Positions 41,120 to 63,647 of a stretch of DNA of 64,000 nucleotides are shown piece after piece. Source of the stretch: Escherichia coli (GTDB lineage: Bacteria; Pseudomonadota; Gammaproteobacteria; Enterobacterales; Enterobacteriaceae); the NCBI RefSeq assembly GCF_024223415.1, contig NZ_CP100500.1; one strand, given 5' to 3'. The notes under the pieces are model-generated. The model had not been told where the DNA came from. It saw only the letters and a list, made by a program, of their open reading frames with translations, and made no database searches. Both the position numbers and the translations under genes were made by a program. Each line of letters starts with the position of its first letter. Position 1 is the first letter of the stretch.

Positions 41120-41139
41120 TGGTGCCCGGACTCGGAATC
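41120..41139 (-). repeat. Island-distal att direct repeat: 20 nt identical to the 3' end of tRNA-Phe (reverse complement), not a complete tRNA
   Basis: tggtgcccggactcggaatc = reverse complement of recalled tRNA-Phe 3' end GATTCCGAGTCCGGGCACCA; the flanking sequence does not continue as tRNA. Confidence 0.75.
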
Positions 41140-41326
41140 ATATCCACGATTAACATACTGTTTGTTATTGGTTTTGTTGCGATTTCTTGTAAACAGCGCC
41201 CCCACTAAAGCCCCCATAAAAAATCGCTTTGGTTTTGTGAGGGTTATCACGAAAAATCAATGTTAAGTGGAGGGCTTCGTTATGTGTGGAGTTATGACCC
41301 TGGCCCAAAATCAGTGCAGTGCTAAA

Positions 41327-41803
41327 TCAGAGATCTTCGTCTTTCCGGAGACTTCGGATGAATTCAGCCGGAGTCATGTCATTTAATGATGAATGCGTCC
41401 TTTCATGATTGTATTCCCTGCGCCAGCTGTCGAGTTTGTCCTGCGCATCTTCCAGTGACAGGAACCAGTGAATGTTCAGACACTCATCCCGTAGACTGCC
41501 GTTAAATGATTCAATAAACGGGTTATCTGTCGGCTTCCCGGGGCGCGAGAAGTCCATGGTCACTCCGTGTTCATACGCCCATTTATCCAGACTTTTTGAG
41601 ATAAACTCGCTGCCGTTATCTGTCTGAATACGTACCGGCAGGCGCTTACCCGGCACCCGCAACCCTTCCATCACACCGACCACATCCTCGCCTTTCAGCG
41701 ACTTTCCGGCATGGATCGCCAGACACTCCCGACTAAAATTATCGACTACAGTCAGCGCCCGGAAACGCCGTCCGTTAAACAGATTATCCGACACGAAATC
41801 CAT
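41327..41803 (-). pseudogene. IS3-family transposase OrfB, DDE catalytic domain only (N-terminal part disrupted)
   Basis: 158 aa containing the DDE integrase-core block; ~360 nt upstream that should encode the OrfB N-terminus lacks a continuous frame. Confidence 0.55.
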
Positions 41804-42159
41804 ATTCCAGCACTGATCGACACCGGTCAGGATGGGACGCTGTTGGCGATGTGCTGCACTGACATGCCTGCACGGACGTTTTCTCCGCAGGTTAAGTCCT
41901 TCCAGACAATAAATCCGGTGTGTTTTCTTGTGGTTAACAGGCCAGCCTTCCTGCCGTAACTGGATATGAATACGCGGGCAACCGTAGCGGATCCGGGTTT
42001 CCGCTATCTCCCTGATGCGCAGGGTTATCGCCCGATCATCTCGCCGACTCTGCCAGTGGTAAACGGTTCTGCTCTGTATCAGCAGTCCACATCCCCGTCG
42101 GACACTGATACGGTAAGCTTCCCGCAGAAAATGTACCGCCTGACGCTTCTGAGCCGGCC

Positions 42160-42426
42160 TCAGAACTTTTGTTTCAGTACCTCCTGCAACATCTCCTTAT
42201 CCAGACTCAGATCAGCCACCAGTTTCTTCAGCCGCTGATTTTCATCCTCCAGTTGCCGCAGACGCCGCAGTTCCGTCACGCCCAGACCGGCAAATTTCTT
42301 CTTCCAGTTGTAAAAGGTGGCCTCAGAAATACCCATCTTTCTGCAGACTTCCCCGACGCGGGTGCCGGTTTCGGCCTGTTTCAGCGCAAACGCAATCTGT
42401 TCTTCGGTATAACGGGTCTTTTTCAT
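42160..42426 (-). CDS. IS3-family transposase OrfA (HTH/leucine-zipper)
   Basis: 88 aa MKKTRYTEEQIAFALKQAETGTRV...; typical IS3 OrfA helix-turn-helix and heptad-Leu region. Confidence 0.7.
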   Translation of the reverse strand: MKKTRYTEEQIAFALKQAETGTRVGEVCRKMGISEATFYNWKKKFAGLGVTELRRLRQLEDENQRLKKLVADLSLDKEMLQEVLKQKF

Positions 42427-42554
42427 GGTAATAAGCCTCTCTGTGAGCAGGAAGAAAGACCGGAGACTTCAGTTTAGACTGGTACTGTTTTCAGGGGGGA
42501 GATCAGTTAGGTTCACACATAACGAATTCTAAAAACACCGCCCTAAATTTTCCG

Positions 42555-61132: not shown

Positions 61133-62014
61133 ATGGGTATGCTGGAAAGAGAGATGAAAAACCTGGCGCGGCAGGCTGGCGGGTCGCACAAGACTGTCCA
61201 TGACCGTATCGCCATGGCAGGACGTTTCTGCGAACGCCTGATGGAACTGAACGTTCAGATACGCTATGTCCACCATTTAAAGGCGAAGCATATTGAGGCG
61301 TATATTCAGATGCGGCTGGCGCAGGGGATTCAGAAAAATACGCTGCATAACGAAACGGCGGCTATCCGTAAAATCCTGACGCAGGCCGGGCGCGAAAAGC
61401 TGGCGCAGAGTGAACGGATATCGAATAAATCGCTGGGGCTGGCTGGCGTATCCCGCAATGGTACGCGGAAAGCCATCACGCCGGAATATTATCAACAGAT
61501 GGCAGAGGCTGCCCGGCTGAAAGATGCGGGGCTGGCGGCGGCGCTGGAACTGACGCGGCTGATGGGGCTACGCTCTCAGGAGGCAGTACGCTGTTCCGGT
61601 TCGCTGAAAACCTGGCGCGAAGCACTGGAGAAAGGTGATACCCGGCTAACCGTGGTACTCGGTACCAAAGGTGGACGGCCCCGTGACACGATTATTCAGG
61701 ATACTGGCGCAGTTAAACAGGCGCTGGATAAGGCCATCGTGGTGGCAGAACGGCGCAACGGCAGGCTGATTGATGCGGCGAGCCTTAAACAGGCAATGAA
61801 ATACTGGCGCAACCAGACTTTGCGTATGGGGCTGACGGGCAAATACTCCCCGCACTCACTGCGCTACGCCTGGGCGCAGGACGATATCTGCCGGTATCTG
61901 GCGCAGGGGTTCAGCGAAAAAGAAGCGCTGGCGATGGTGGCAATGGACCTAGGGCATGGCGACGGGCGTGGTCGCTGGGTGAAGCAGGTGTATGCACGGA
62001 ATGATGAAGCGTGA
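61133..62014 (+). CDS. Small tyrosine-recombinase/integrase-like protein
   Basis: ATG at 61133 preceded by a GAGG RBS; C-terminal HSLRYAWAQ box and RGR region resemble catalytic boxes of phage integrase family; unusually short. Confidence 0.45.
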   Translation: MGMLEREMKNLARQAGGSHKTVHDRIAMAGRFCERLMELNVQIRYVHHLKAKHIEAYIQMRLAQGIQKNTLHNETAAIRKILTQAGREKLAQSERISNKSLGLAGVSRNGTRKAITPEYYQQMAEAARLKDAGLAAALELTRLMGLRSQEAVRCSGSLKTWREALEKGDTRLTVVLGTKGGRPRDTIIQDTGAVKQALDKAIVVAERRNGRLIDAASLKQAMKYWRNQTLRMGLTGKYSPHSLRYAWAQDDICRYLAQGFSEKEALAMVAMDLGHGDGRGRWVKQVYARNDEA

Positions 62015-62195
62015 TTTTTTGCTGGCGCAGCGAAAGGAAAAAGGCCAAAGGGTAAAGGTGGGTTAAGGGTAACAGCTCCTTACCGGAAAGGGCCAAAGGG
62101 TTGGGACTGGCGCAGATCGACGTCTATCCACGGATATCTGGCGCAAATAAAAAGCAGATCCCTGATGCAGTGGATCTGCTTTCCGGCATTGTCCG

Positions 62196-63502
62196 TTAGC
62201 TGGCGCAGGCCGCCTGAATCTGCCTGTCATACCGATACGGCGGGATAAATTTCTGCCGACAGGCGTCGAGATAATCCGACCACCACTGCATCATCTGTGT
62301 GCGCTCGTCGAGGTGCTCCGCCTTGTGGATATACGCGGCACGAACGTGATTACGCTCCTGATGGCTCATTTGTCGCTCCACGGCGTCTTTTGACCAGCGC
62401 CCGGACTCGATCAGCGCACTACAGGCCATCGTGCGGAAACCGTGACCGCAAACATCTGCCTGTGTGTTGTAGCCCATAACCCGCAGTGCTTTGTTGATGG
62501 TGTTTTCGCTCATCGGCTTACGCGGATCGTGGTCGCCGGGAAACAGTAACTCACTACTGCCGGACAACAGTTTTAACTGTTTGAGTATTGTCACCGCCTG
62601 CGCTGACAACGGCACCAGATGCTGCATCTTCATCTTTGCGCCGCGATTTGAATAACGCACGCCCGGAATCGGCTCCCGCTCCGCCGGGATGGTCCACATT
62701 GCGCCATCCAGATTGATCTCCGTCCAGCGGGCAAAACGTAGCTCGCTGGAACGGATAAAGATCAGCAGATTAAGCTGTACCGCCAGACGGGTTAACAGCC
62801 TGCCGGAATAGCCTTCAATACGCTCCAGCATCTCCGGTATTTTCTCCAGCGGCAGGGCGGGGTAGTGGTTTTTGGGCGGCGGTGCGATAGCCCCGGTCAG
62901 ATCGTTCGCCGGATTGCTGTCGATTATCCCCTCCTGCACCGCGTAACGCATGATTGCCGTGGTGCGCTGCTGAATCCGTGCAGCGGTCTCCAGCGTACCT
63001 TTTCGTTCCGCCACCCGCAGCGGGATCAGCAGATCGGCAGTTTTCAAATCAGAGACCGGAATTTGCCGATCAGTGGAAAAACATGCAGCTCCAGCGAGCG
63101 CAGGACTTTGGCGGCATGGGCTTCATTCCAGCGGATATTGCCCGCTACCCACTTACGGGCGATATCTTCAAAGGTGTTGCCGCTTTTACGTGCAAACTTC
63201 TCCTGCTGTTTTTTCACGCCGGGATCGCTGCCTGCGCTCAATACCGAGCGGGCATCCTCGCGCAGCTTGCGGGCATTTGCCAGAGAAACGGCCGGGTAAG
63301 CACCAAACGCCAGCTTCTTCTCTTTACCGCCGAAGCGGTACTTGAGGTGCCAGAGTTTAGATCCGTTGGGCTTTATCAGCAGGTACAGACCCTGCGCATC
63401 GCTGAGTTTCCAGGATTTATCAAGCGGCTTTGCATTACGGATGGCGGTATCGGTGAGGGACATAGTGGGGCTCCATAGTTTATCGAACCGACGGGCCCCC
63501 AA
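62196..63502 (-). pseudogene. P4-type tyrosine integrase split into two overlapping ORFs (frameshift)
   Basis: N-terminal 152-aa ORF (63044-63502) and C-terminal 283-aa ORF (62196-63047) together give an integrase-sized protein with the catalytic HxxR...Y region (GHGFRTMA, HQERNHVRAAY); adjacent to tRNA-derived repeat. Confidence 0.7.
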
Positions 63503-63625
63503 TTAAGCCCCCAAAAACTATGGATGTCAAAAAATCTGGCAGTACCTGTTGGTACTCCAGACTCTTTGTAACTAACTGATTTTTTGATGTTTCAGGACTC
63601 ATAGAGACGCCATGAAACTAAATAG

Positions 63626-63647
63626 TGGTGCCGGACTCGGAATCGAA
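63626..63647 (-). repeat. Integrase-proximal att repeat: 22 nt matching the tRNA-Phe 3' end with one missing C; not a complete tRNA
   Basis: tggtgccggactcggaatcgaa versus recalled tRNA-Phe 3' end; downstream sequence is unrelated to the tRNA body. Confidence 0.7.

Follow-up and report, generated by a model that had tools for sequence, protein, structure and literature searches.

A decayed ApsAB-type defence island at the Escherichia coli pheV hotspot, probably displaced from its tRNA gene by a second island

Based on detailed comparisons of a 64,000-nucleotide stretch of Escherichia coli DNA (NCBI RefSeq assembly GCF_024223415.1, contig NZ_CP100500.1; hereafter the window) with the corresponding locus of related genomes, we propose that positions 41140-63625 represent a 22.5 kb defence island of the integrase type that inserted at the tRNA-Phe gene pheV, decayed, and was later displaced from this gene by a second, CP4-like island. 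We assign this reading a probability of roughly 0.9. The defence island, here termed island A (22,486 bp), is enclosed by two direct repeats of the tRNA-Phe 3' end, DR1 and DR2, and the second island, here termed island B, begins immediately behind DR2 and continues past the end of the window.

The pheV site and the two tRNA-Phe fragments

The unoccupied site is represented by K-12 MG1655, where the gene order is yqgA, pheV, yghD with nothing between them, as a preliminary description of the window had stated for pheV and yghD. At the end of yghD, in the intergenic region, in the hairpin of the pheV terminator and over the initial 20 nt of the tRNA 3' end, window and K-12 are equal; from there on they diverge, the window continuing with 'atatccacg' and K-12 with 'gaaccaagg'. 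As the identity to K-12 ends after these 20 nt, DR1 is the displaced original 3' end of pheV, still joined to its own terminator. The features that define the ends of island A are the following.

41080-41119, minus strand: native downstream flank of pheV, with a rho-independent terminator hairpin (CCCGCC/GGCGGG, 41089-41105) and a minus-strand T-run, the same sequence as directly 3' of pheV in K-12; chromosomal side of the distal junction of island A
41120-41139, minus strand: DR1, displaced 3'-terminal 20 nt of tRNA-Phe and distal attachment-site core of island A; 20/20 match, with K-12 identity stopping exactly there
62196-63463, minus strand: P4/CP4-57-type tyrosine integrase, pseudogene; NCBIfam PRK09692 matched in two open reading frames (ORFs) at model positions 5-144 and 160-396, annotated 'frameshifted' by the NCBI Prokaryotic Genome Annotation Pipeline (PGAP)
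63626-63647, minus strand: DR2, 22-nt remnant of the tRNA-Phe 3' end (CC for CCC), seam between island A and the second island
63648-64000, minus strand: distal end of the second, CP4-44/CP4-57-like island, from 63758 on the 3' part of a DUF4942 gene, continuing past the window; at most 97.4% identical to EC1515 and others

With K-12 pheV as the reference for the tRNA-Phe 3' end, DR1 reads TGGTGCCCGGACTCGGAATC, which matches the reverse complement of the final 20 nt of E. coli tRNA-Phe, CCA included, at every position (20/20). This 20-mer is the sole match in the window at up to three mismatches, and none of 100 shuffled sequences matched. DR2 reads TGGTGCCGGACTCGGAATCGAA and corresponds at 22 positions to the first 23 nt of the tRNA 3' end read in this direction, one C of a CCC run being missing; its 15-nt exact core, GGACTCGGAATCGAA, occurs once in the window and in 0 of 100 shuffles. 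Both repeats thus align to tRNA-Phe, and they are co-oriented, with the tRNA sense on the minus strand, which confirms the 20-nt repeat and the 22-nt, single-C-deletion repeat from which the preliminary description had started. Since ARAGORN detects no complete tRNA anywhere in the 64 kb, DR1 and DR2 are both partial copies.

That the sequence between the repeats is an insertion follows from the distribution of occupied and empty sites among 5426 complete E. coli genomes. Searched with a 501-nt probe spanning the K-12 junction, 1534 of these (~28%) carry the empty, contiguous yghD-pheV-yqgA site, which is interrupted in the rest. Carriers of the island, taken as genomes matching at least 80% of window 40000-64000, number only 19. 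Empty sites in 1534 genomes together with so few carriers mark the intervening genes as accessory and not core. The comparison with K-12 and other E. coli accordingly bears out a true insertion at the pheV hotspot, as had been suggested, in agreement with the standing of pheV as a classic site of integration (PMC7545054; PMC11739808).

The integrase gene, expected at the tRNA-proximal end of such an island, is located 163 bp from DR2. Alignment to the intact gene of a related island in strain R32_14_1F (locus L008) places its lesion at a 1-nt deletion in an A-run near 63065. The P4-type integrase is hence a pseudogene, and given the frameshift no self-excision of island A is predicted, the island being probably immobile today, unless the integrase of island B, 61% identical to the intact L008 integrase, acts in trans.

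The right-hand repeat as a seam between two islands

Comparison among the carriers reveals what lies beyond DR2. In twelve of them the match to the window stops at 63647, where DR2 ends, and the island is closed by a complete pheV. SCU-316 is one such case, with 100% identity over window 40000-63647 followed by a complete tRNA-Phe and then yqgA. This layout shows the 22.5 kb unit to be an island in its own right, which extends from DR1 to pheV and has its integrase beside the tRNA. EC1515 and six other genomes instead match across DR2 into a second island. In EC1515 this second island is ~37 kb long and contains DUF4942 and DUF957 genes, CbtA/YeeU, an antirestriction gene, Ag43, a complete bacteriophage exclusion type 1 (BREX-1) system and an intact integrase, after which pheV and yqgA follow. 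The distance from DR1 to the tRNA in such tandem relatives is ~59 kb, the true pheV lying ~37 kb beyond DR2. In O78 strain 3, island A and DR2 are the same, and the CP4-like island behind them is a different one. For the genome of the window, a CP4-like island of some 30-40 kb with an intact P4-type integrase at its end, and behind it a complete pheV and yqgA, is predicted past position 64000.

The right-hand repeat is therefore the seam between two islands and not an attachment site at an intact gene, and within this tandem array the 22.5 kb unit takes the distal position. The preliminary description had taken this repeat as the right boundary of the island; its match to the tRNA 3' end holds, while pheV itself is absent from the window and the repeat is a remnant at the junction with the second island. 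More generally, a tRNA-fragment repeat within a window of this kind can mark the seam of a tandem array instead of a tRNA gene.

DR2 also resembles the ends of other islands. In strains 222 and Ch1, its CC variant, followed by 'cgaa' or related sequence, terminates CP4-like islands that border immediately on the native flank of pheV, so that DR2 has the appearance of the second island's distal attachment site. The lengths of the two cores differ as well, the 23-nt core of this site exceeding the 20-nt core of island A.

We note two side observations on the tandem locus of EC1515. The BREX-1 genes of its second island (L004 17835-31287) are brxA, brxB, brxC, pglX, pglZ and brxL, and the pheV locus of this strain as a whole has PDC-S06 as a candidate system in addition to ApsAB, Shango, AbiE and BREX-1, all within ~59 kb.

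We propose that the present arrangement arose as follows. Site-specific recombination between the attachment site of island A and the pheV 3' end would have been carried out by the island's own P4/CP4-57-type tyrosine integrase. Integration would have duplicated the last 20 nt of the tRNA, so that DR1 stayed with the native pheV terminator and yghD, while the element-borne copy completed the tRNA beside the integrase. Island A has since decayed in three ways, namely through the 1-nt frameshift in the integrase, loss of an ash/HTH (helix-turn-helix) regulatory module and insertion of an IS3-family element behind apsB. Later, a second CP4-like island probably entered the regenerated pheV 3' end, pushing island A away from the tRNA and leaving the 22-nt DR2 between the two.

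The order of the two integrations is suggested by the degree of identity to other genomes. Island A of the window is 99.9-100% identical to the single-island copies and 99.5-99.6% identical to the EC1515-type tandem copies, while the final 353 nt of the window reach no more than 97.4% identity with any record, and three different second islands sit behind near-identical copies of island A. A unit almost identical to its single-island copies, joined to a more diverged B end that exists in three variants, argues for A having been first and B second. Judged from sequence comparisons, the most economical order would thus be a resident island A, next to which CP4-like islands integrated independently.

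Several points weigh against this history. The window stops 353 nt past DR2, and both the second island and the true pheV are deduced from relatives, whose island B ends are 94-97% identical to that of the window. The same map would result if island A had entered the distal attachment site of an already resident island B. The missing C of DR2, considered as a specific marker of island B, is weakened in this role, as the distal repeat of the related island L008 shows the same CC variant, which is hence not unique to island B. Base composition, finally, lends almost no independent support to a foreign origin of island A. Its GC content is 49.8%, while window 1-41119 has 52.5% and the gsp region 53.5%. 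Among its genes, PDC-S06 is lowest with 44.6% and abiEi highest with 57.3%, and the integrase has 56.6%. For the E. coli genome as a whole the average is ~50.8%, about equal to that of the island. The island is accordingly more AT-rich than the GC-rich gsp backbone, as noted by eye in the preliminary description, but the contrast is too small to be diagnostic.

Four alternatives were considered. The first reverses the history: a CP4-like island B was first at pheV, and A later integrated into the tRNA-remnant core at the distal end of B. B-type islands that occur alone, with the same 22-nt CC remnant beside the native flank, are indeed common, and the remnant keeps a 19-20 nt core that could act as a secondary attachment site. 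However, island A stands alone beside an intact pheV in the 12 genomes described above, the three B variants adjoin near-identical copies of A, and the A integrase is frameshifted in every near-identical copy with annotation examined (SCU-316, EC1515 and O78 strain 3), making repeated late integration of A improbable. We consider the reversed order unlikely, if the best placed of the four.

Slightly less credible is the view that island A is not an 'integrase-only' island at all, and instead a decayed P4-like phage satellite that has retained its defence hotspot. Such an origin is compatible with the P4-type integrase, with the ash-family gene in the L008 variant and with the ST38-type apsAB, which adjoins genes for Psu, Ogr/Delta, AlpA and a P4 alpha-like primase. 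Against it, psu, delta, sid and primase genes are absent from the window, and equally from the variants with intact integrases, L008 and the related island of strain EC12 (L009). More specifically, no psu, delta, sid or alpha primase-helicase gene is annotated or predicted in island A, L008 or L009. With respect to integrative and conjugative elements (ICEs) or integrative and mobilizable elements (IMEs), all ORFs above 200 aa are assigned to defence systems, an insertion sequence (IS) or recombinases, no dedicated relaxase search having been run. By gene content, island A is not a P4-like satellite, an ICE or an IME.

The 22.5 kb unit could also be a distal module within a single large, composite island at pheV, the internal repeat being an accident of recombination between islands. 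This would agree with the lack of a complete tRNA closing the unit in the window, the degenerate right-hand repeat and the ~59 kb between DR1 and the tRNA in relatives. The identical unit is, however, found alone between DR1 and a complete pheV in the 12 single-island genomes, whose matches end exactly at 63647, and an integrase of its own lies at the end where one is expected. The single-island genomes largely refute this very unlikely interpretation. Chance or unrelated duplications of tRNA fragments around ordinary chromosomal genes, for which nothing beyond the marginal compositional contrast could be adduced, are refuted by the absence of shuffle matches, by the precise empty site in K-12 and 1534 genomes and by the restriction of the island to 19 of 5426 genomes.

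Gene content of island A

Between the repeats the window contains the integrase, an IS3-family element and defence genes, as the preliminary description had it. From the integrase side, the cargo consists of a PDC-S06-type ATPase gene, abiEi/abiEii, sngA-sngB-sngC and apsA/apsB. In addition to the end features given above, the following were identified.

41198-41216, plus strand: GCCCCCA-N5-GCCCCCA motif, left copy, 59 bp inside the island end
41295-42505, minus strand: complete IS3-family element, 1211 bp; NCBIfam transpos_IS3, with an intact transposase with programmed frameshift annotated by PGAP in identical sequence
42555-44786, minus strand: apsB, Argonaute-like subunit, 743 aa
44783-49498, minus strand: apsA, superfamily 2 (SF2) helicase with C-terminal PD-(D/E)xK nuclease, 1571 aa; alternative GTG start at 49534
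49510-55352, minus strand: Shango, with sngC 49510-51708, sngB 51705-53021 and sngA 53025-55352; PADLOC SngC 1.2e-273, SngB 4.1e-187, SngA 4.6e-97
55536-57220, minus strand: AbiE pair, with abiEii 55536-56603 and abiEi (DUF6088) 56603-57220; PADLOC AbiEii 2.8e-193, AbiEi 7.2e-46, also PGAP
57419-59614, plus strand: AAA/SMC-like ATPase, PADLOC candidate PDC-S06; PADLOC 3.3e-242, PHROG 2801
59615-60889, no strand: decayed non-coding stretch of ~1.3 kb with no annotated gene
60890-61023, plus strand: EFASI RNA motif, Rfam RF02957, full length, 112.7 bits against a gathering score of 51.2
61133-62014, plus strand: second, divergent tyrosine-recombinase-like gene ('integrase domain-containing protein' in PGAP), with weak XerC and phrog_1 integrase matches
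63495-63513, plus strand: GCCCCCA-N5-GCCCCCA motif, right copy, ~110 bp inside the integrase-side end

The two large genes at the distal end encode proteins without a match in PADLOC, NCBIfam, Pfam, PHROGs or, by sequence, the PDB. Their interpretation as a possible new two-gene defence system, suggested by their standalone occurrence beside a BrxR regulator in Vibrio and in Tn7 cargo, was rejected when a fold search, followed by the literature, led to ApsAB, and on the evidence of motifs, fold and the 2024 paper the predicted products are identified as this published antiplasmid system. In the published ApsB, a MID-like motif Y-x3-K...QG...K is combined with a C-terminal residue (Y409, K413, Q431-G, K489 and N743), and the motifs of ApsA lie at positions matching those of cluster P0004 (PMC11096173). 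Here, Y409, K413, Q431, G432, K489 and N743 of ApsB are invariant in 20 homologues and occupy the published positions. ApsA is 94% identical to the ST38-type (sequence type 38) cluster P0004 and contains the SF2 helicase motifs, and its C-terminal fold matches DdmD and restriction endonucleases in the fold search. The apsA gene is directly upstream of apsB, with a 4-nt overlap, and starts 11 nt after the sngC stop.

For each of ApsA and ApsB ~52 clusters of homologues were recovered, apparently all from Gammaproteobacteria, with many pairs on the same contigs. E. coli apsAB islands have been found in tRNA genes and may also encode SngABC and AbiEi/AbiEii, and destabilisation of plasmids has been shown for the ST38 ApsAB and for a 92%-identical homologue (PMC11096173). 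Carriers of island A are predicted to destabilise some plasmids (ColE1, p15A and pOXA-48 types), which bears on the spread of resistance plasmids. The standard libraries PADLOC 2.0, Pfam and NCBIfam still miss this validated system, which accounts for 7 kb of the island.

Next to apsAB is a Shango system, whose three genes match near full length and in canonical order. PGAP annotates their products as a DEAD/DEAH helicase, an ATP-binding protein and a protein with a TerB N-terminal domain, in agreement with the definition of SngABC as a TerB-domain protein, an ATPase and a DEAD/DEAH helicase (PMC10250203). The abiEi and abiEii genes abut, and the PDC-S06 gene is a candidate single-gene defence system.

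The neighbourhoods of apsAB in other genomes indicate how this cargo is organised. A Salmonella locus holds the same AbiE-SngABC-ApsA block, Xenorhabdus has apsAB alone, and apsAB without Shango is found in Vibrio beside a BrxR-type regulator, in Rheinheimera within Tn7-like cargo and in a metagenome, where further defence-like genes adjoin it. As apsAB is found without Shango, ApsAB is autonomous and the AbiE-Shango-ApsAB block is a cargo cassette. Alternatively, AbiE-SngABC-ApsAB might form one co-transcribed, coupled super-system in which the helicase/ATPase of Shango would cooperate with the Argonaute-guided helicase-nuclease ApsA, e.g. through a shared sensing or loading step. Conservation of the unit between the E. 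coli pheV islands and the Salmonella locus, together with the 11-nt gap between sngC and apsA, prompted this idea, which we regard as improbable.

Three side observations touch on the cargo. In Vibrio toranzoniae (L011 8984-16946), a divergent BrxR/WYL-type regulator gene precedes apsAB, suggesting BrxR-type control of ApsAB in some hosts; the window has no such neighbour. In the island of strain EC12 (L009 10503-18015), SngABC is disrupted by IS1397 and a Mks/Wadjet-like cluster is found in place of apsAB, and L008 has an OLD-like ATP-dependent nuclease in place of PDC-S06. These swaps in L008 and L009 show cassette-wise exchange of defence cargo within one island scaffold.

On the integrase side of the cargo, L008 and L009 hold an ash-family gene, a small ORF and an HTH gene at the position of 59615-60889. 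The ash and HTH genes are absent from the window, where only patches of 60297-60713 align to the related islands by blastn. The EFASI motif follows, directly upstream of the second recombinase-like gene. EFASI is described as often being near STAXI and integrases; no STAXI motif scored over threshold near it. The second recombinase-like gene recurs in L008, where it is frameshifted, and in L009, where EFASI is partly aligned as well (60921-61016, 76%).

The GCCCCCA-N5-GCCCCCA motif has just two copies in the 64 kb, one at each island end and co-oriented, and both are kept in the diverged L008. From their placement, the pair represents candidate arm-type binding sites for the integrase, an excisionase or a recombinase.

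The IS3-family element had been described as a remnant. Instead, it is a complete 1211-bp IS with ends TGACC...GATCA and a 4-bp target duplication GTTA (41291-41294 and 42506-42509). A repeat search missed its terminal inverted repeats, and its bounds were set by homology, together with the target duplication and the unoccupied site of L008. Copies on Klebsiella plasmids match 41291/41295-42505/42506 at 93.6%. A palindrome with perfect stems TTCGTTATGTGTGGA / TTCACACATAACGAA (41277-41294 and 42506-42530) lies immediately downstream of apsB and has the element in its loop, and deleting the IS plus one GTTA restores the uninterrupted palindrome that is present in L008. Its placement may reflect a target preference for hairpin loops. 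Inside the IS, antisense to the transposase frames, we also observed an isrN-like Rfam match (Hfq-binding small RNA, 72 bits) at 42025-42161 on the plus strand; the isrN 'sRNA' family may simply be this IS.

Outside the island, the left part of the window is ordinary backbone, with pitB, yghST, yghO, glcCDEFGBA, sslE, pppA, gspS2 and gspC-M/yghD. The locus of the beta-type type II secretion system (sslE, pppA, gspS2 and gspC-M) is complete at window 24000-41000, whereas K-12 keeps only yghF, yghE and yghD beside pheV, a difference that is ordinary strain variation.

Comparison with known islands and defence systems

Island A shares its site, its repeat structure, in which the displaced 3' end stays beside the native terminator, and the tRNA-proximal P4/CP4-57-type integrase with the genomic and pathogenicity islands known from pheV in E. 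coli and Shigella, e.g. PAI V536, PAI I-CFT073, SHI-1/she and the locus of enterocyte effacement at pheV, for which tandem or composite occupancy is likewise typical. It differs from them in that its cargo is for defence and not virulence, in its small size of 22.5 kb, in its inactivated integrase and in the second island between it and pheV.

Among defence islands, it resembles the ApsAB islands (Nat Commun 2024, PMC11096173, Fig. 8b), which have the same apsAB with an identical ApsB MID-like motif and can carry SngABC and AbiEi/AbiEii beside it. The prototype, from ST38, is situated at a tRNA-Leu gene, beside P4-like satellite genes and without Shango (PMC11096173), whereas the island analysed here is at pheV and includes Shango. 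Compared to DdmDE of Vibrio cholerae, ApsAB has no detectable sequence similarity, ApsA is ~400 aa longer, and ApsB keeps the MID-domain 5'-end pocket motif found in long prokaryotic Argonautes, which DdmE is reported to lack. As a lesser point, the closest solved structure to ApsB is DdmE, while the two were judged dissimilar when predicted models were compared in the literature; should the likeness be real, ApsAB and DdmDE would be homologous in both subunits.

In its overall architecture, island A is in keeping with defence islands of the 'integrase-only' kind (Hochhauser et al. 2023, PMC10121019). These, too, are small and combine several defence systems with one or two recombinase genes, other mobility genes being absent, and they occupy tRNA hotspots that are empty in many strains, as is the case at pheV. 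The main text of that study, with its 41 numbered hotspots, does not name pheV, yghD or yqgA.

In conclusion, the feature is known in kind, and every validated system in its cargo has already been published. The refinements presented here are its tandem context, its decayed state, the complete IS, and the recognition of 7 kb of 'hypothetical' cargo as ApsAB.

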